DNA of 62,305 nucleotides from a bacterium (GCA_044868695.1 JBIOWP010000115.1:1-62305), one strand, 5' to 3'; positions 2,166 through 9,826 are shown, counted from the first letter of the stretch. Notes: a model not told the origin generated them from the letters alone. Numbers and translations are program-made.

Positions 2166-3074
2166 ATGTCCGCACGAACGACCGCCGCCCTGGCCCTGAC
2201 CGCGGTGGCCGCTCTTGTTGTGACGGCGTGCCAGCCGACCGTCAGCGTCTCCCGGGCCGGGATCGATCTGCAGTCCGAGCTGCCGCTCGCTCCGAAGGAT
2301 CCGCCGCTGCTGCCGGCGGACGCGCGCGGAGTGCCGATCCGTCCCTCCGCAGCGGAAGGATCACGGGTCTTCGCCAGAGCACAGTGCGTCGTCTGCCACG
2401 GCCCGCTGGGGTTGGGTGACGGGCCCGCGGCAGCCAACCTCAGGTCGCCGGGCAAGAACCTGCTCGTGGATTTCCTGGCGCTGCTTGGGATCCGGGCGAG
2501 AGGCGAGCAACTGCCCAGCCGGCCGGCCAACTTCCACAACGTGGTCGCGATGCGCCTCAACAGCCCGTTCAGCATGTACGAGACGGTCACCCGCGGTCGG
2601 CCGCATACGGCGATGCCGGCATTCGGGCCCAAACCGGCCTATGGGGCGGCGACCTTCGGGGTCCGGCTGACCGACGCGGAGCGGTGGCATGTGATCTTCT
2701 TCGAGTGGGCGTTTGCCACCACACCGCAGGAGGTCGCGCGCGGTCGGCAGATCTACGAGTCGCGCGCGATCGACGTCGGCGGGCGCGCCCTCACCTGCGC
2801 CTCGTGCCACGGGGTGAACGGTGACGGCCGCGGGCCGCAGGGGGCGGAGCTGTCCGGCAAGTTGTGGGCCTGGGCGAGGGGGCTGGGCCCGGGGGTCTTT
2901 ACCGACTTCAACCTCATGGCCCAGCGCAAGCCGACCGAGATGTTCCAGTCGATCGTGGACGGCCGCGGCGAGATGCCAGCCTACCGGGACAAGCTGACGG
3001 AAGACGAGATGTGGGCGCTGGTGAACTACATCTTTACATTCATGTACGAGTACCCGGCAGCGCCGGGCCGATGA
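2166..3074 (+). CDS. Di-heme c-type cytochrome lipoprotein, probable cytochrome c1 equivalent
   Basis: Lipoprotein signal ending VVTAC; CxxCH motifs CVVCH and CASCH, each followed by an MPA Met ligand; ATG at 2166. Confidence 0.88.
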   Translation: MSARTTAALALTAVAALVVTACQPTVSVSRAGIDLQSELPLAPKDPPLLPADARGVPIRPSAAEGSRVFARAQCVVCHGPLGLGDGPAAANLRSPGKNLLVDFLALLGIRARGEQLPSRPANFHNVVAMRLNSPFSMYETVTRGRPHTAMPAFGPKPAYGAATFGVRLTDAERWHVIFFEWAFATTPQEVARGRQIYESRAIDVGGRALTCASCHGVNGDGRGPQGAELSGKLWAWARGLGPGVFTDFNLMAQRKPTEMFQSIVDGRGEMPAYRDKLTEDEMWALVNYIFTFMYEYPAAPGR

Positions 3075-3147: not shown

Positions 3148-3840
3148 ATGGACGCTCAAACGCCGCAGGACATAGGACGCCGGAAGTTCCTCAAGCTGGC
3201 GGCGACGGTGCCGGCGCTGGGAGCGGCAGTGGCCCTGATCTCGCCGCTGTTGCGCTTTCTGAAGCCCAACGTCGAGAGGTTCAAGATCTACGCGCCGACG
3301 GTACTGGACACGCCCCGCGGGGAGCCGATTGCGGTGGCCACGCTCCGCGAGGTGGCCAACCCCTGGGACTTCAAGTACTTCGTGTTTACCCAGAAGTACC
3401 CGCAGTACACGCCGGAAGGATTCAAGGCCGCGAGCGTGCCCGGCGTGGTCGTGCGCCTGCCGTACAAGATCGCGCTGTACGATCCGGCGACAGGACGCGG
3501 CCCGCTGCGCTGGGCCCGCGACATCGGGAAGACGCCCCAGGTGACGGAGAGCGACCTGATTATCTTCTCGCGGATCTGCCCGCATCTGGGCTGCATCTAC
3601 AACTACGTGGCGAACTACAAGGAAGTGACCGCCGGGTACGGGGGGTACCTGCCGCCGCCGCCGCGCCAGCATGCCCTGATGGCCTGCCCGTGCCACCTCA
3701 GCATCTACGATCCGGCCGACCGCGACACCCCCGGCCGCGTCCTCTCCGGCCCCGCGCCGCGGCCTCCCCGGACCTTCCTCTTTGAGATCCGGGGCGAGAG
3801 TATCGTGGTGACCGACGTCGAAGCGGGAGGCATCGCCTAG
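3148..3840 (+). CDS. Rieske [2Fe-2S] subunit of Rieske/cytochrome b complex
   Basis: Tat motif GRRKFLK plus TM anchor; boxes CPHLGC and CPCHLSIY; C-terminal GPAPRP. Confidence 0.95.
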   Translation: MDAQTPQDIGRRKFLKLAATVPALGAAVALISPLLRFLKPNVERFKIYAPTVLDTPRGEPIAVATLREVANPWDFKYFVFTQKYPQYTPEGFKAASVPGVVVRLPYKIALYDPATGRGPLRWARDIGKTPQVTESDLIIFSRICPHLGCIYNYVANYKEVTAGYGGYLPPPPRQHALMACPCHLSIYDPADRDTPGRVLSGPAPRPPRTFLFEIRGESIVVTDVEAGGIA

Positions 3841-3845
3841 CATCG

Positions 3846-5030
3846 ATGCTCGAGCAAGTCCGCGAGTGGCTTCGAGAGCGCCGGCAGAAGCTGGACCTGT
3901 TCGACGAAACGCTGGTGGCCCGTCAGGACAACCCCCTCTACTTGATGGGGCCCATGCTCTACTACTTCTGGCTGCTCACCGTGGCCACCGGCATCGTCTT
4001 GATGCTGTGGTATGAGCCCACGACCACCGGCGCGTACACCTCGATCGAACGGATCCAGAACGACGTGGGACGGCTCGGAATCTCGTTCCTGGGCCGCCCG
4101 CTCGTGCTGGGGGGGTTGATCCGCGGCCTGCACAAGTACGGGGCGGACGCGCTGATCACCGTCATCTTCCTGCGCCTCTACCGGATGTACTTCCTGGGGG
4201 AGTACAAAAAGCCCGGTGAACTGTCCTGGATGCTGGCGTTTCTCGGACTGATCCTGGGGATGGTGTCCGGGATCACCGGGTACCTGCTCATCTGGAACCA
4301 GCGGGCGTTCTGGGCGGCGAAGGTCGTGCTGACGGTGCCGGTCTACTTCGACGAGATTCCCATCCTGGGACCGCTGAAGTTCGGCTCGATGATCGCCTTC
4401 CTGTTCCTGGGCGGGCCGGCGGTGGGGCAGGCCACCATCACACGGTTCTACGCCATCCATTTCGGCATCTCGCTGCTGCTGCTCATCCTGGTCGAAGTCC
4501 TATTCTTCCGCATGCGCCGGAAGCGCATGAACATGTCGCTGTTTCCGATCGCGCTGTTCACGGCCATGCTGATTATCATCTCGATCATCCTGCCGGCGGA
4601 AAGCGGGCGGCGCGCCGATCCCACCCGCACCCCGCTGCCGATCCTTTCAGACTGGTACTTCCTGGCGCTCTATCAGTACGTCAAGTACACGCCGCCGCTG
4701 TGGGCGGGTCTGGGTCCGGGACTGCTGATCGGATTCGGGATGCTGGTGCCGTTCCTGGACCGGAGTAGGGGTCGGCGGCCCCTGGAGCGGCCGTTCTTTA
4801 CCGTCGTCGGGGCGCTGGCGGTCGTCTACTTCCTTGTGTTCACGGCGCTGATCCTGTTCAACATCGCCGTCATCGAGCGAGACCCGTTCGTGATCATGCT
4901 GGTCACGCTGGTCGTGCTCGCGCTCGGGCTGATGTGGGAACTGCGGTACCGCAGGAAACAACGCCACCTCGCCGCCGCGGGTCCCCCCGCGAAGGCGCTG
5001 GCCGGGGCGGAGCGGCCGGCCCACGGATAG
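3846..5030 (+). CDS. Cytochrome b paralog 1 (b plus subunit IV fused); heme bL ligands only, Qo-like SDWY
   Basis: GGLIRGLH(96), TRFYAIH(205), GYLLIWNQ, ADPTRTPLPILSDWYF; bH His positions are Arg110 and Leu219/Phe220. Confidence 0.93.
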   Translation: MLEQVREWLRERRQKLDLFDETLVARQDNPLYLMGPMLYYFWLLTVATGIVLMLWYEPTTTGAYTSIERIQNDVGRLGISFLGRPLVLGGLIRGLHKYGADALITVIFLRLYRMYFLGEYKKPGELSWMLAFLGLILGMVSGITGYLLIWNQRAFWAAKVVLTVPVYFDEIPILGPLKFGSMIAFLFLGGPAVGQATITRFYAIHFGISLLLLILVEVLFFRMRRKRMNMSLFPIALFTAMLIIISIILPAESGRRADPTRTPLPILSDWYFLALYQYVKYTPPLWAGLGPGLLIGFGMLVPFLDRSRGRRPLERPFFTVVGALAVVYFLVFTALILFNIAVIERDPFVIMLVTLVVLALGLMWELRYRRKQRHLAAAGPPAKALAGAERPAHG

Positions 5031-5039
5031 GCCGCCGCC

Positions 5040-5288
5040 GTGAGGCAGATCAGCTTTCTCGCCGTATTTTTCCTGGCGATGTGGGCCATGTCGGCCGGCT
5101 GGGCGGCGATCCGGGCGACCTGGCAGGCGCCGGATATCGCGGGAGTCATCGAGATACTGGCATATGTCGCAGTGCTCGCCGCGTCGCTATTCTACCTCGG
5201 GTTCTGGATTTACGCCTGGGATCGGGCTGCCGGGCGCGTACGACGAACCATCGGGATCTACGAACGGTTTTTGAGGGGCAAATCGTGA
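5040..5288 (+). CDS. Small two-TM membrane protein, putative complex subunit
   Basis: 82 aa with two hydrophobic helices, 9 nt after the cytochrome b stop. Confidence 0.7.
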   Translation: MRQISFLAVFFLAMWAMSAGWAAIRATWQAPDIAGVIEILAYVAVLAASLFYLGFWIYAWDRAAGRVRRTIGIYERFLRGKS

Positions 5289-5295
5289 TGAGGAT

Positions 5296-5375
5296 GGGAC
5301 CAGGGACCCGGGACCAGGGACCCGAACAGATACCGTCGGTCTTATTCTGGTCCCAGGTCCCCGGTCCCAGGTCCC
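5296..5375. repeat. Palindromic heptamer tandem-repeat hairpin (GGGACCM x4 / NGGTCCC x4)
   Basis: gggacca gggaccc gggacca gggaccc ... tggtccc aggtccc cggtccc aggtccc. Confidence 0.9.
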
Positions 5376-5394
5376 GTAGTCCGGAGGGTTGACC

Positions 5395-5595
5395 GTGCGT
5401 TCCATCTATGCCGCAGGCATTGTGCTCCTCAGCGGGCTGTCGCTGCTGTTCGCAGCCGGCATCCTCTACGGCGAGGCGACCGACCGGTGGTCGCTCGGCG
5501 GCGGCTTGGTCGGAGCGCTGTTGATCGCGTACTCGGTGATCGTGCTCCTCCTGCGCAAGATGGGCTTCGTCGGCCCGCGGAAGGCTGAGCGATGA
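5395..5595 (+). CDS. Small two-TM membrane protein, putative complex subunit
   Basis: GGAGGG RBS at 5383-5388, GTG at 5395, two hydrophobic helices, stop overlaps the next ATG (ATGA). Confidence 0.72.
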   Translation: MRSIYAAGIVLLSGLSLLFAAGILYGEATDRWSLGGGLVGALLIAYSVIVLLLRKMGFVGPRKAER

Positions 5596-6794
5596 GCACC
5601 GCCGCCGCACCCGAATCCCTGGCGCGCCGGTACGCCCGGCTGATGACGACGCTGCTGCGCGGCACGCTAAAGTTGGACGTCTGGATCGGGAAGATCTACC
5701 CGACCGACTTCAATCCCCTCTACTACACTGGCGGCCTGTCCAACCTGTTCCTGCTCGTCCTGGTCTTGTCGGGTATCTTCCTGTTCTTCTACTATGAGGC
5801 GAGCTTGAGCAGCGCGTTCGCCTCGGTCCGCTATCTGACCGAAGGCGTCCCGTACGGCGGTGTCATCCGCGGTGTCCACCGGTATTCCGCCGACGGATTC
5901 ATCGTGGCCATCCTCCTGCACCTCTTCCGCAACTGGTTTACTGACCGCCATCTCTTCTCGCGCGATAACCCGTGGATCTCGGGAATGTTCCTGCTGCTGT
6001 TCGCCGGGTTCATCGGGTTCACCGGCTATCAGCTGGTCTGGGACGAGCGGGCGCAGCTGCTGACCGCGATGTTTGTGGCCATGCTGCGCAGCTTCCCTGC
6101 CGTGGGTGACGCGCTGGCGCGGTTGTTCCTGGGGGGAGCCGGCGTGGGGGAGACCACGCTGGTCCGCGTGCTCTTCTTGCACATCGGTCCGGCGTCCGCG
6201 CTGTACGCCCTGCTGTGGTGGCACTACCTCCGGCTGCGCCACCCCAAGATCTGGCCGCCGGGGGTGTGGGTACTGGGCTGCGTGGGGCTGGTGTTCCTGC
6301 TGGCGGGGGTGATCCCCGTGAGCAACGACGCCATTCCCCCGGCGTCGCCGGCCGCGCGCCCTTCCGGTTTTCCGATGGACGTCTTCTTCATGCTGCCGTT
6401 CTGGCTGTTGAACGTCTTCTCACCCGGAGCGGTCGTGTTCCTCTCGGTGCTGTTGTTCACCGGCGGACTGGCGGTCCCGTACTTCAGCCGCAGAGAGACC
6501 CCACAGGAGATGGACGTGCGACATGCCGGCGTGGCGCAGGTCATCGATGGCAACTGCACCGGCTGCGAGTTGTGCTACTTCGACTGCCCGTACAATGCCA
6601 TCGTCATGGTGCCGTCTCCCGGTCCGGGGTTGAGCAAGGCGGCGGCGAATCGCACGCTGCTGGCCGTGGTGGTGGAGTCCCGGTGCGTGGAGTGCGGGAT
6701 TTGTATCGGCGCGTGCCCGTTTGAGGCGCTGGAACTGCCGAAATTCCTGGAGCGGGATGTCCTCCGGCAGGTGAGCCAGGCGGTGCAGGCGTGA
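5592..6794 (+). CDS. Cytochrome b paralog 2 fused to C-terminal 2x[4Fe-4S] ferredoxin domain
   Basis: All four heme His (96, 110, 197, 211); PEWY position reads PMDVFF; CTGCELCYFDCP and CVECGICIGACP. Confidence 0.93.
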   Translation: MSTAAAPESLARRYARLMTTLLRGTLKLDVWIGKIYPTDFNPLYYTGGLSNLFLLVLVLSGIFLFFYYEASLSSAFASVRYLTEGVPYGGVIRGVHRYSADGFIVAILLHLFRNWFTDRHLFSRDNPWISGMFLLLFAGFIGFTGYQLVWDERAQLLTAMFVAMLRSFPAVGDALARLFLGGAGVGETTLVRVLFLHIGPASALYALLWWHYLRLRHPKIWPPGVWVLGCVGLVFLLAGVIPVSNDAIPPASPAARPSGFPMDVFFMLPFWLLNVFSPGAVVFLSVLLFTGGLAVPYFSRRETPQEMDVRHAGVAQVIDGNCTGCELCYFDCPYNAIVMVPSPGPGLSKAAANRTLLAVVVESRCVECGICIGACPFEALELPKFLERDVLRQVSQAVQA

Positions 6795-7249
6795 GCCGAA
6801 TTCCCAACGTGGTCGGGTTCATCTGCGACTGGAGCGTGGATCTGAAACCCCTCCTGGAGGCCGGCCGCCTGCGCGACCTCCCCCATGTCCGCATCATCCG
6901 GGTGCCGTGCTCGGGCTTCGTGCGTCCCTCCTGGCTGGAGGAGGCGCTCAATCGAGGCGCCGACGGTGTGTTTGTCACGGGCTGCCCGTACGGAGATTGT
7001 CTCAATCGCGAGGGGAACTTCCTGATGCGGGATCGCGTCGACCAGCTGACGCGCCGGCTGCAGCGCAGAAAGGTGGATCCGGCCCGGCTCGGGATGCTGG
7101 CGTTTGGGCTCCACGAGGGGGAGGCCTTCCTGGCCGAGGTCAGGGGGTTTGTCGACCGGATCGCGGCCCTGCCGCCGGCGCCGGCGCGGGCGGCGGCGCG
7201 TCCCGTCGCGGTCGTGCAGCCGGCCGGCGCGCCGGAGGGCGAACGCTGA
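6791..7249 (+). CDS. MvhD/FlpD-family [2Fe-2S] protein
   Basis: FICDWS, RVPCSG, GADGVFVTGCPYGDC...EGN; four Cys ligands; overlaps the upstream stop. Confidence 0.9.
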   Translation: MSRIPNVVGFICDWSVDLKPLLEAGRLRDLPHVRIIRVPCSGFVRPSWLEEALNRGADGVFVTGCPYGDCLNREGNFLMRDRVDQLTRRLQRRKVDPARLGMLAFGLHEGEAFLAEVRGFVDRIAALPPAPARAAARPVAVVQPAGAPEGER

Positions 7250-7411: not shown

Positions 7412-7795
7412 ATGCAGAGACGGGTTGGGTTGGGAACGGTGATCCTGCTCGCGGCCGTGGTCGCCGCCGCATGTGGTGGGGGCGGCCAGCAGGGAGGCGG
7501 TCAGCCGGGCGGGACGGCCCCGGGGTCGGGGATCACCGTGTCTGAGAAGGAGTGGTCGATCGAATTCCCCAGCAAGACGCTGAAGGCGGGAACGGTCAAG
7601 CTGATGGTAAAGAATGACGGGACGATCGAACATAACTTCATCATCGAGGAGGCGAACGTCGAAGTCGACGCCATCCAGCCCGGGTCGTCCAAGGAAGTCA
7701 CCGTCACCTTGAAACCTGGGACCTACACAGTGCTCTGCAACATCGCAGGACACCTGGAAGCAGGGATGAAGACGACCATCACCGTCAGCGAGTAG
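7412..7795 (+). CDS. Cupredoxin (type-1 blue copper) lipoprotein
   Basis: Lipobox VVAAAC; copper ligands EHNF and CNIAGHLEAGM. Confidence 0.88.
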   Translation: MQRRVGLGTVILLAAVVAAACGGGGQQGGGQPGGTAPGSGITVSEKEWSIEFPSKTLKAGTVKLMVKNDGTIEHNFIIEEANVEVDAIQPGSSKEVTVTLKPGTYTVLCNIAGHLEAGMKTTITVSE

Positions 7796-7877: not shown

Positions 7878-8846
7878 ATGGACCTGACCGCCATCTACGC
7901 ACCTGTGCAGGGCGACCTCGACCGTTTGTCGGCGCTGCTGGAGCAGGAACTGGCGGCCGATGACCCCTTCGTCACCGAGCTGGTCCGCCATGTCCTGAGC
8001 ACGCGCGGAAAAATGATCCGGCCGGCGCTGGTCTGCCTGGCTGCCCAGGCCAGTGGGGGCGCGGGCGAGGCCCGGTTGTGGCTGGCGGAGGCCGTCGAGC
8101 TGATCCACGTCGCCTCGCTGATCCATGACGACATCGTCGACCAATCGGAGGTCCGCCGCGGGGTGGCCACGGTCAACGTCCAGTGGGGGAACCAGATTGC
8201 CGTCCTGCTGGGCGACTATCTCTTCGCGAAGGCCTTTGATCTGCTCAGCCGCATCCGCCACCCCGAAGTGGCCCCGACGCTTGCTGTGGCGACAGTCAAG
8301 ATGAGCCAGGCGGAGATCATGCAGATCAAGCATGGGGAGGAACCGCACGATGACGAGGAGACGTATTTTCGCATCATCGCCGGCAAGACGGCCCACCTGT
8401 TCTCCGCCGCCTGCCGCGCCGGCGGCCTGGTCGCAGGGAACGATGCGGCCGCGGAGGGGCTGGGAGCGTTTGGTCTCAACTGGGGGATGGCCTTCCAGAT
8501 CACCGATGATGCCCTGGATCTCACCAGCCGCGAGGACACGCTGGGCAAGCCGATCTACAGCGACATCCAGACCGGCAAGACGACTCTGCCCGTGATCCGC
8601 GCGCTGCACGAGGCGACGGCTTCGGATCGGGCGCGCCTGCTCAGCGCCCTCACGGGTTCAGCGCGCGACGGACAGGTCGAGGAGGTTCGAACCCTTCTGC
8701 AGCGCTACGGGGGCGTCGACTACGCGCTGGACGTGGCCGCGCGCTATTCCCGCCGGGCGGCCGATGCCCTCGACCCGCTCCCCCGTGGTCCGGCCCGAGA
8801 CAGCCTGCTGGCGCTCACCGAGTTTGTCGTCGTACGATCGCGCTGA
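7878..8846 (+). CDS. Polyprenyl diphosphate synthase (HepT/IspB-like)
   Basis: GKMIRP, LIHDDIVD, FQITDDALD, GKTTLP. Confidence 0.93.
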   Translation: MDLTAIYAPVQGDLDRLSALLEQELAADDPFVTELVRHVLSTRGKMIRPALVCLAAQASGGAGEARLWLAEAVELIHVASLIHDDIVDQSEVRRGVATVNVQWGNQIAVLLGDYLFAKAFDLLSRIRHPEVAPTLAVATVKMSQAEIMQIKHGEEPHDDEETYFRIIAGKTAHLFSAACRAGGLVAGNDAAAEGLGAFGLNWGMAFQITDDALDLTSREDTLGKPIYSDIQTGKTTLPVIRALHEATASDRARLLSALTGSARDGQVEEVRTLLQRYGGVDYALDVAARYSRRAADALDPLPRGPARDSLLALTEFVVVRSR

Positions 8847-8851
8847 CCTGC

Positions 8852-9826
8852 ATGCCTCCCGGCGTTGTAGCGGTCACGGGCGCCACAGGTTTCATCGGCT
8901 CCCATGTCGTGCGGATGCTCCGCCGCGCGGGAACGCCGGTGCGCGCCGTCGTCCGCCCCGAGACGAAGCGGTCGGAGCGACTGGCCGCCGTCCGCGCGCT
9001 GGGGGTCGAACTGGCATACGCGGACGTCGGCGATCTCGGCGCGCTTGAGCAGGCGCTGGAGGGCTGCGGCGCCGTGGTCCATCTCGTGGCGATCATCCGG
9101 GAACGGGTCGGTGCGACCTTCGATCTGGTCAACCGTCGCGGTGCCGCGGAGGTGGGCGCGGCGGCAAAGGCCGCCGGCGTTGGGCGGATCGTTCATCTCA
9201 GTGCGCTGGGCGCCTCCCCCCAGGCGCCGCGCTATCTGCAGTCCAAGTTCGCAGGGGAAGAAGCCATCCGCCAGTGCGGCGTGGCATCGGTCATTCTTCG
9301 TCCCTCGTTCGTGATCGGTCCGGGCGGGGGAGCGGCCGTGCAGTTTGCCGCCGTCGTGCGGCTGGGTCCCTGGTATCCCCTGGCCCTGCTGGGGGCCCCC
9401 AGCCGGCCGCTGGCGGCGCTGGCTATGCTCACCCCGATCGTACCGGTGCTGGGATCGGGGTCATACCGGTCGATGCCCCTTGACATCCGTGATCTCCTGG
9501 AGGTCATCCGGCAGGCGCTAACCCGCGAGGACACCCTTGGGGACGTGTTCGATCTCGGCGGTCCCGACATCCTGACCTACGACCGGCTCATTGACGAGGT
9601 CGCGGCGGTGCTGAGGGTGCGACGGTGGAAGGCGCACATGCCGCTGTCGTTTGCCCGGGCCCTCGTGCGGGAGTTCCGCAGCCTCCCCAACCCCCCCATC
9701 ACGCTGGACGAGTTTGAGGCCCTGCTCGTTGACAATGTGTGCGACAATACGAAGGCAGTTCGCACCTTCGGGCTCACGCTGAGGCCGTTTCGCGAAGCCA
9801 TGCGACACGCGCTCCAAGGAGATTGA
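8852..9826 (+). CDS. NAD(P)-binding atypical SDR (NDUFA9-like)
   Basis: VAVTGATGFIG, HLSALGA, YLQSK, LRPS. Confidence 0.85.
   Translation: MPPGVVAVTGATGFIGSHVVRMLRRAGTPVRAVVRPETKRSERLAAVRALGVELAYADVGDLGALEQALEGCGAVVHLVAIIRERVGATFDLVNRRGAAEVGAAAKAAGVGRIVHLSALGASPQAPRYLQSKFAGEEAIRQCGVASVILRPSFVIGPGGGAAVQFAAVVRLGPWYPLALLGAPSRPLAALAMLTPIVPVLGSGSYRSMPLDIRDLLEVIRQALTREDTLGDVFDLGGPDILTYDRLIDEVAAVLRVRRWKAHMPLSFARALVREFRSLPNPPITLDEFEALLVDNVCDNTKAVRTFGLTLRPFREAMRHALQGD

Follow-up and report, generated by a model that had tools for sequence, protein, structure and literature searches.

We analysed a 62,305-nucleotide stretch of bacterial DNA (GCA_044868695.1, JBIOWP010000115.1:1-62305; referred to as the window), whose phylum, judged from its nearest relatives, is Candidatus Sysuimicrobiota (formerly CSP1-3). 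The window carries a gene cluster for a Rieske protein, two unlike cytochromes b (b1 and b2) and an MvhD-type protein. b1 keeps the ligands of heme bL and an intact Qo motif and has lost both ligands of heme bH, while b2 keeps all four heme ligands, shows a degenerate Qo motif and ends in a ferredoxin domain. This two-cytochrome-b arrangement is real, conserved and widespread. With regard to its meaning, we infer that b1 and b2 belong to one complex, i.e., that the cluster encodes a single Rieske/cytochrome b complex of non-canonical build, whose membrane core consists of b1 and b2, a reading that we hold to be evenly balanced. A more detailed picture, an ancient obligate heterodimer with three b hemes per core, in which quinol would be oxidised only on b1, electrons would cross from bL to bL, and iron-sulfur (Fe-S) clusters and MvhD would deliver them to a cytoplasmic acceptor, is possible yet on balance doubtful when all of its parts are taken jointly.

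Two cytochromes b with complementary heme sites

The b1 protein matches the Pfam models PF00033 (E 4.8e-27, 95.5 bits, cut-off 27.2) and PF00032 (E 4.8e-07, 30.4 bits, cut-off 20.7). In the alignment with a solved cytochrome b6 (1vf5_A, E 5.9e-31), b6 His86 and His187 fall on His96 (codon at 4131) and His205 (codon at 4458) of b1, whereas b6 His100 and His202 fall on Arg110 and Phe220. That is, the bL (bp) sites of b1 keep their histidines and the bH (bn) sites are occupied by Arg110 and Phe220. Of the four histidines that b1 has overall (96, 205, 384, 393), two are in the membrane part. Its translation further shows Leu219 beside Phe220 and the motifs SDWY (268-271), YLMGP (32-36) and WMLAF (128-132).

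For b2, PF00033 is matched (E 4.7e-30, 105.3 bits, cut-off 27.2) and PF00032 is not. Its histidines 96, 110, 197 and 211 are all in register with a solved cytochrome b6 (6rqf_I, E 6.8e-29) and are present in 69/69 sequences. The four histidines expected of a dihaem cytochrome b are therefore found in b2 and lacking in b1. The six helices of b2 correspond to A-D plus E and F, the latter two aligning to helices E-F of b1 (hhalign E 1.1e-43). b2 also shows YYTGG (44-48), WISG (128-131) and PMDVFF (261-266), so that every residue and coordinate named in a preliminary description of the window is present in the translations. In the profile alignment, M-D-V-F of b2 is placed on S-D-W-Y of b1, the aspartate being kept in 67/69 sequences with the consensus x-D-[VW]-F. 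Judged by this alignment, PMDVFF corresponds to the Qo motif in degenerate form; the replacement of PEWY described earlier is present as such and does not amount to a simple loss. An AlphaFold2 model of b2 (mean predicted local distance difference test score, pLDDT, of 74.5; predicted template modelling score, pTM, of 0.72) aligns structurally with the cytochrome b of bc1 along about 290-305 columns.

The conservation of b1 was assessed on 76 aligned sequences, i.e., the window plus 75 loci. Arg110, His96, His205 and SDWY are each found in 76/76. Position 219 is occupied by F35/Y29/L9/H2/M1 and thus never consistently by histidine. Arg110, Glu217 and SDWY are also present in all of the 51 b1 sequences from metagenome loci that a scan with the b2 alignment returned, and a cross-phylum alignment of 23 sequences shows Arg110, Glu217, His96, His205 and SDWYFL to be invariant. 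This is also reflected in a library of 1.8 billion representatives clustered at 50% identity: all 22 b1-like representatives (E <= 3.8e-38, column covered) have a basic residue at position 110 (Arg 21, Lys 1), and the representatives with weaker matches are cytochromes b of the ordinary kind, with four histidines and PEWY/PDWY-type motifs. On the level of near-identical contigs, taken from three soil runs of two studies, no change is found at b1 codons 96, 110 and 205, and the changes listed at codons 217, 219 and 221 are synonymous. The loss of bH-packing glycines that had been proposed for b1 holds for helix C, where position 131 varies (A35/L17/S11/G8/F5 in 76 sequences), and does not hold for the first glycine of helix A, since YLMGP keeps Gly35 in 75/76. 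As an observation beside these families, seven further members of the library (P0144-P0146, P0152, P0208, P0259, P0275) mark more cytochrome b lineages with a residue other than histidine at one or both bH positions; it is Arg, combined with PDWY or ADWY motifs, in P0144-P0146 and P0152, and elsewhere Phe/Leu, Arg or Gln.

The invariant Glu217 of b1 is one turn away from the lost helix-D ligand and opposite Arg110. An ion pair of Arg110 and Glu217 may thus fill the former pocket of heme bH. Since heme bH cannot be held, a Qi site of the known kind would be excluded for b1, and the earlier statement that b1 alone is incapable of a Q cycle stands, because the protein offers no bis-histidine site for this heme. 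The residues of the cytoplasmic face that are invariant across phyla are D17, F19, D20, E21, R110, R113, Y120, K121, E125, E217, R227, D305 and R315. Such cross-phylum invariants are dense in residues 17-21 (with L-D-L-F-D-E-T near the N-terminus), 110-125, 217-227 and 305-318, which is odd for a subunit without heme or known quinone site on that side. The conserved cytoplasmic surface could be a docking site for the Fe-S arm. In Vampirovibrionales, the cd loop of b1 is extended by an insert of about 30 residues.

This Fe-S arm would comprise the C-terminal domain of b2 and the MvhD protein. At residues ~310-385, b2 matches several 4Fe-4S families (e.g., PF00037 with E 1.6e-10 and PF12838 with E 7.2e-09), all eight cluster cysteines are invariant in 23 sequences, and among PDB sequences the domain matches the polyferredoxin FwdF. 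Because the N-terminus of cytochrome b is cytoplasmic and the helix count is even (six), the domain is expected on the cytoplasmic side, given b6 topology. The MvhD protein matches PF02662 (E 4.3e-28, 98.2 bits, cut-off 22.3) and was found in a single copy in the genome; its Cys12, 40, 65 and 70 are kept in 63/63 homologs (with one masked X at Cys40). Lacking a hydrophobic segment, it is presumably cytoplasmic as well. Its cluster we take to be [2Fe-2S], as in MvhD of methanogens. The heme-ci cysteine, found within FYCLGG in b6, is absent from both cytochromes b (YLMGP in b1, YYTGG in b2), and the respective b2 column is T54/H15 in 69 sequences.

The two proteins were previously called paralogs. 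They are homologous cytochromes b and at the same time not close, i.e., b1 and b2 share 29% identity over 214 residues, which rules out a recent b1/b2 duplication. We computed a FastTree phylogeny of 174 N-terminal domains (23 b1, 22 b2 and 129 of 150 representatives, with one b2 row containing a masked X and 21 representatives below 170 residues dropped). b1 forms a clade of 43 rows (support 98) and b2 a clade of 25 rows (support 100). Both clades are sisters with a Shimodaira-Hasegawa-like support of only 80, and since the sample was drawn with b1 as query, we treat their sisterhood as a lead only.

Gene linkage, distribution and respiratory setting

We further assessed how strictly the genes travel together. 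The genes of b2 and MvhD are found downstream of b1 in 59/59 loci with at least 2600 bp of 3' flank, and the Rieske gene is upstream of b1 in 71/72 loci with at least 900 bp of 5' flank. A metagenome scan with the b2 alignment, which covers close relatives only (57-83% identical) and was used for linkage counts, gives the same picture from the b2 side: b1 is upstream in 42/42 loci and MvhD downstream in 70/70. The order Rieske-b1-(small open reading frames)-b2-MvhD is found in Sysuimicrobiota, in Melainabacteria/Vampirovibrio and in one metagenome-assembled genome (MAG) each of Anaerolineae and Fimbriimonadaceae, with 40-45% identity for the b1 loci in MAGs from outside Sysuimicrobiota.

Within the phylum of the window, 81/94 genomes show a b1-type match (79/92 without the unpublished genomes G017 and G025). 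In the class with the Melainabacteria relative, such a match is found in 89/151 sampled genomes, 88 of which have at least one further cytochrome b match; among the 22 genomes with both matches listed, the second cytochrome b is about 1-2.2 kb downstream on the same strand. Five members of the phylum without b1 (G027, G029, G033, G034, G010) were searched with the b2 profile, and no b2 was found in any of them. That is, the reciprocal ligand pattern is conserved and both genes co-occur and are lost together, which is the outcome of the operon comparison that the preliminary description had suggested. Four of the five carry a distinct cytochrome b of 357 amino acids; the respective loci of one genus (L163-L166 in G029, G033, G034 and G027) score about equally (~136 bits) on the b1 and b2 profiles.

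In two Melainabacteria/Vampirovibrio loci, genes of a cbb3-type oxidase are directly 5' of Rieske-b1-b2-MvhD and in the same direction (L064:1651-5274, L075:1224-5304), comprising COX1, a fusion of FixO and cytochrome c, and a cytochrome c. These neighbours provide a respiratory context. In the Vampirovibrio MAG G095, b1 and b2 are the only cytochromes b, while four other genomes from outside the phylum have additional ones. The source genome of the window is 95% complete, such that blanks are not proof of absence. b1 and b2 are its only two cytochrome b genes, next to one heme-copper oxidase; cytochrome bd and an NrfD-type (alternative complex III) subunit were not found in it. The cluster is thus the only visible route from quinol to cytochrome c. 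MqnA and a [NiFe] hydrogenase were not found in the source genome either, and its CCG-domain proteins are encoded only away from the cluster.

Proposed electron routes and rival explanations

In the favoured b1:b2 core, a quinol, probably of a low-potential quinone, would be oxidised at the Qo site of b1. One electron would pass via the Rieske protein to the dihaem cytochrome c lipoprotein encoded 5' of the Rieske gene, then via a cupredoxin or cytochrome c to the single heme-copper oxidase. The other electron would enter heme bL of b1. For quinol oxidation with a Rieske partner and for the reduction of bL, b1 is fully equipped. Since b1 is without heme bH, this low-potential electron needs a neighbouring heme, and its only exit would be a hop from bL(b1) to bL(b2) across an interface as in bc1 dimers. 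It would then cross the membrane to heme bH of b2 and, from there, either reduce, in a one-sided Q cycle, a quinone bound at the cytoplasmic face or pass through the two [4Fe-4S] clusters and the [2Fe-2S] cluster of MvhD to a cytoplasmic acceptor. The route had earlier been drawn up to bH(b2), which leaves out the ferredoxin domain of b2 and the coupled MvhD; given both, the low-potential chain may end in cytoplasmic Fe-S clusters, instead of or besides a Qi site. That electrons must cross between the subunits and can leave through Fe-S clusters is a plausible hypothesis. A b1 homodimer could only shuttle the electron between its two bL hemes, as a second heme is absent. We favour the b1:b2 core because b2, with bL, bH and Fe-S tail, is the one acceptor that always travels with b1.

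To check the heterodimer proposed earlier, we used complex prediction with custom alignments. The pair b1+b2 reached values of 0.60, 0.61 and 0.54 (median 0.60) for the interaction prediction score from aligned errors (ipSAE), with the best of three controls at 0.00, at least 93% contact agreement between runs and partner pLDDT of at least 75. This is classed as weak support. For calibration, the applied mark is reached by 58/80 solved complexes and 2/110 mismatched pairs, and an ipSAE of 0.60 or below occurs in only 7 of the 80 solved complexes and in both of the passing mismatches. Given that cytochrome b dimers have already been solved, the prediction mostly shows likeness and may reflect these known structures.

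Several observations weigh against a b1:b2 core with an Fe-S outlet. The prediction is weak, and any two cytochrome b homologs are expected to score. No natural b1-b2 fusion was found in a search with b1 among proteins of 691-2000 amino acids, which is weak evidence; the sole match at E <= 1e-20 is a 775-amino-acid cytochrome b-cytochrome c fusion with 29% identity. Qi-site residues are not recognisable in b2. Its Fe-S domain is modelled at pLDDT 41-60, so no distance to heme bH can be given, and no cytoplasmic partner enzyme is conserved beside MvhD in related loci. Translational coupling divides the genes into two groups, Rieske-b1-sm1 and sm2-b2-MvhD (sm1 and sm2 are small open reading frames, see Table 1), with a strong hairpin between them in the window. 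The acidic Qo residue kept by b2 may indicate its own quinone site on the outer side. Finally, b2-like cytochrome b-FeS-MvhD proteins without Rieske partner are described in Proteobacteria and a spirochaete (PMC4122944; here and for the further papers cited by PMC number below, statements refer to the accessible part of the source), and Atlas clusters combine cytochrome b and Fer4 in Pseudomonadota. Since such modules exist without a Rieske partner, b2 need not depend on b1.

The last three of these points (coupled groups with the hairpin, retained aspartate, Rieske-less modules), together with the weak prediction, are what speaks for two separate but co-regulated enzymes, (Rieske-b1)2 and (b2-MvhD)2, an arrangement that we regard as rather unlikely. 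Here, (Rieske-b1)2 would act as a simplified oxidoreductase from quinol to cytochrome c that runs no Q cycle, with bL(b1) storing an electron transiently or with the two electrons passing to the Rieske cluster one after the other. (b2-MvhD)2 would independently wire the quinone pool to a cytoplasmic redox partner, like the PDWF-FeS cytochromes b discussed below or a NarI-type dihaem anchor. The delivery of both Qo electrons to the Rieske cluster is a short-circuit that known complexes suppress. A pair of independent enzymes is also hard to reconcile with the strict co-occurrence (59/59; 42/42) and the co-loss of b1 and b2 within the phylum. The bL ligands and R93 (the Arg before His96) are invariant in b1, which speaks for heme bL being in use, and in a b1 homodimer this heme would be left without acceptor. 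The hairpin, in turn, is absent from 16 folded related loci.

Keeping the same b1:b2 core, the Fe-S arm could instead be an entry, with electrons flowing from ferredoxin or another donor via MvhD and the two [4Fe-4S] clusters to bH(b2) and on to quinone. We consider this reversal quite improbable. It resembles the ferredoxin-driven cyclic flow into cytochrome b6f and could also poise the b hemes. MvhD is known from methanogens as an electron connector between Fe-S proteins, and [4Fe-4S] clusters typically have lower potentials than b hemes, so that electrons would preferably run from the clusters to the hemes. In line with an entry, no acceptor enzyme is encoded beside MvhD, and the complex I of Melainabacteria is without NADH module and possibly ferredoxin-dependent (PMC6349859). 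On the other hand, the electron from b1 would then need a quinone-reducing site in b2, where none was recognised, the source genome shows no [NiFe] hydrogenase as donor, and the sequence alone does not give the direction of flow. For that b1 is a decaying or mis-sequenced normal cytochrome b, finally, we see practically no chance: Arg110 and SDWY are invariant in 76/76 and 51/51 sequences with at least four phylum-level labels, b1-type matches recur in 81/94 genomes of the phylum and in 89/151 of the Melainabacteria-relative class, and the frames are intact with soil-run variants synonymous at the codons checked. The missing bH ligands, also the key element of the preliminary description, are thus not a product of local decay or error.

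Related systems and surroundings of the cluster

We compared the cluster with known Rieske/cytochrome b systems. Like canonical bc1/b6f complexes, it combines a Rieske protein and a c-type cytochrome with a cytochrome b that carries a Qo motif. In the alignments, b1 matches b6 together with subunit IV and b2 matches b6, and the b2 model superposes on the cytochrome b of bc1. In contrast to these complexes, two different cytochrome b genes are present instead of one, b1 is without bH ligands, b2 has six helices, its Qo motif is degenerate and an Fe-S domain is fused to it, MvhD comes as an additional subunit, and the heme-ci cysteine is missing from both cytochromes b. The cluster probably departs from the homodimeric build of bc1/b6f complexes.

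The closest experimental analogue is found in engineered asymmetric bc1 complexes of R. capsulatus and R. sphaeroides (fused B-B, BS-B), in which a Qo half is combined with a bH/Qi half such that bL-bL crossing is needed. Cross-inactivated dimers of this kind reportedly sustain growth. Unlike the cluster, they are laboratory mutants of a homodimer, while the asymmetry here would be of natural and ancient origin and divided between two genes, with an extra Fe-S exit or entry; the pairing of b1 and b2 is the inferred part of this comparison. For the engineered dimers, bL-to-bL transfer is described as millisecond and catalytically relevant (PMC4330944).

The nearest functional proposal concerns the pair of anammox complexes of Kuenenia stuttgartiensis (Kuste4569-4574, Kustd1480-1485), for which a Qo bifurcation is proposed to push an electron to NAD(P)+ (PMC12954380). 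These also combine a Rieske/cytochrome b core with a cytoplasmic Fe-S module, modelled asymmetrically with one module per dimer (PMC12954380). As described there, they have a single b6-like cytochrome b with both hemes plus heme cN, a separate subunit IV, multihaem cytochromes c and an FAD/NAD(P) reductase, whereas the cluster shows no flavoprotein, two unlike cytochromes b and an arm of ferredoxin-like domain and MvhD.

b2-like fusions of cytochrome b, FeS and MvhD have already been known since 2014, namely the PDWF-FeS clade of Kao and Hunte (2014) with Magnetospirillum magneticum, Turneriella parva and Alicycliphilus denitrificans (PMC4122944). Compared by description only, the clade shares with b2 the module of cytochrome b, 4Fe-4S domain and MvhD and a Qo motif of the xDWF kind (x-D-[VW]-F in b2). 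It differs in that the accessible part of the paper reports no Rieske protein and has MvhD on the same protein, while here MvhD is a separate, overlapping gene, a heme-poor b1 is upstream and a Rieske gene precedes it in 71/72 loci. Regarding natural heme loss, Pyrobaculum comes nearest: the fourth histidine of its cytochrome b is missing, from which the authors infer a loss of heme bH (PMC4122944). There, one ligand is lost in one archaeal genus and that part of the paper describes no partner cytochrome b, whereas b1 loses both ligands and has R110/E217 instead.

Within the searchable literature, which leaves key subscription papers and supplements outside its scope, we found neither a description of a natural two-cytochrome-b Rieske complex nor one of the missing bH ligands in these lineages. 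In the main text of two papers on Sysuimicrobiota/CSP1-3, complex III, Rieske and bc1 all go unmentioned, and 'SDWY' is absent from the accessible part of PMC4122944. The 'heterodimeric cytochrome b' of PMC6606698 refers to cytochrome bd and is not relevant here, and PMC3509893 contains nothing on the subject. In its accessible part, PMC4122944 further describes that sequences lacking any of the four histidines were dropped before the analysis of its cytochrome b survey. The b1 family would thus be hidden in that survey.

If the b1:b2 core is true, the cluster bears on a question debated for decades, namely whether complex III passes electrons from one half to the other in normal turnover; tests of this have been confined to engineered mutants. 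A natural enzyme with the bL-bL bridge as sole exit would prove this bridge able to sustain the whole catalytic flux and would offer structural and kinetic studies an asymmetric system that needs no engineering. Qo bifurcation would make a cytoplasmic reductant, instead of or besides a Q cycle, and the Fe-S arm would be the second case, besides the anammox proposal, where such bifurcation is possibly wired to cytoplasmic redox chemistry. Based on the genome searches run, this would be a common respiratory complex of Sysuimicrobiota and many Melainabacteria. Annotation is affected as well, since b1 and b2 genes are now labelled plain petB/petC or 'cytochrome b' in both groups. The 'complex III/IV' operon of Melainabacteria is annotated plainly as petB/petC in the literature, and their complex III genes have entered the debate on how b6f and aerobic respiration arose in the cyanobacterial lineage (PMC6349859).

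The layout of the cluster is summarized in Table 1.

Table 1. Features of the Rieske/cytochrome b cluster in window coordinates
Feature	Position	Strand	Remarks
Dihaem cytochrome c, probable lipoprotein	2166..3074	+	Open reading frame open from 1983; likely start Met62 at 2166
Divergent Rieske [2Fe-2S] protein	3148..3840	+	RRKFLK twin-arginine signal; one N-terminal hydrophobic helix (segment 14-38)
b1, eight-helix cytochrome b (b6 + subunit IV fused), 394 amino acids	3846..5030	+	bL ligands only; SDWY intact
sm1, open reading frame of 82 amino acids	5040..5288	+	Two predicted membrane helices (hydropathy segments 6-24, 33-51)
GC-rich hairpin, GGGACCN heptads	5296..5375	none	Between sm1 and sm2
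sm2, open reading frame of 68 amino acids	5389..5595	+	Two predicted membrane helices (hydropathy segments 8-26, 36-54); stop overlaps b2 start
b2, 400 amino acids in total	5592..6794	+	Cytochrome b + C-terminal ferredoxin domain
b2 membrane part, six-helix cytochrome b	5592..6518	+	Four heme ligands (bL, bH); degenerate Qo motif M-D-V-F
b2 C-terminal 2x[4Fe-4S] ferredoxin domain	6519..6794	+	Fer4 families; two CxxCxxCxxxC motifs
MvhD/FlpD-type protein	6791..7249	+	PF02662; start overlaps b2 stop
Small cupredoxin, probable lipoprotein	7412..7795	+	PF13473 (4.2e-09), PF00127 (1.7e-05); C-x4-H-x4-M copper motif; lipobox

The Rieske and b1 genes are separated by 5 bases, and stop and start overlap at sm2/b2 and at b2/MvhD. 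The Rieske protein reaches 15.7 bits (E 0.014) on the Pfam Rieske model and is thus below the cut-off of 20.3. Both cluster boxes are invariant nonetheless (CPHLGC at 144-149, CPCH at 180-183; all six ligand/disulfide residues in 72/72 homologs), and we therefore treat it as a divergent member. Automatic annotation may overlook this gene. The dihaem cytochrome c (PF13442 with E 7.2e-19, PF00034 with E 8.8e-18) shows two CxxCH motifs at residues 135 and 272 and, after Met62, a signal peptide with a 'VVTAC' lipobox; its homolog is 5' of the Rieske gene in most Sysuimicrobiota loci. The cupredoxin, a candidate electron carrier to the oxidase, was found in only part of the loci of this phylum.

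With regard to the small open reading frames, sm1 has no Pfam match, and its homologs are weakly conserved (33-66% identity) at the equivalent position in many Sysuimicrobiota loci; sm2 homologs in related loci show 41-80% identity. The b1 homologs from outside Sysuimicrobiota (L063, L064, L069, L072, L075, L077, L081) are longer, i.e., 440-570 amino acids, with extra hydrophobic C-terminal segments and no CxxCH. These segments may match the separate sm1 and sm2 of the window.

The hairpin is near-perfect with a minimum free energy of -63.2 kcal/mol (z -3.6). Its arm has four matches in the window, all of them inside the hairpin (0 expected), and is found with other flanks in contigs from three soil runs. 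Given these differing flanks, the hairpin may be a dispersed repeat element. A role as conserved operon divider is ruled out, as a comparable palindrome was found in 0/16 folded related loci.

Just upstream of the cytochrome c gene and divergent from it, 72-2175 on the - strand encodes a two-component system, with a histidine kinase (HAMP, HisKA, HATPase_c) and a response regulator of OmpR type, that may regulate the cluster. On its 3' side, 7878-9826 encodes in the same direction a polyprenyl synthetase and an NmrA-like NAD(P)-binding protein. This pair keeps its position in many Sysuimicrobiota loci, which may link both proteins to the synthesis of the quinone side chain.

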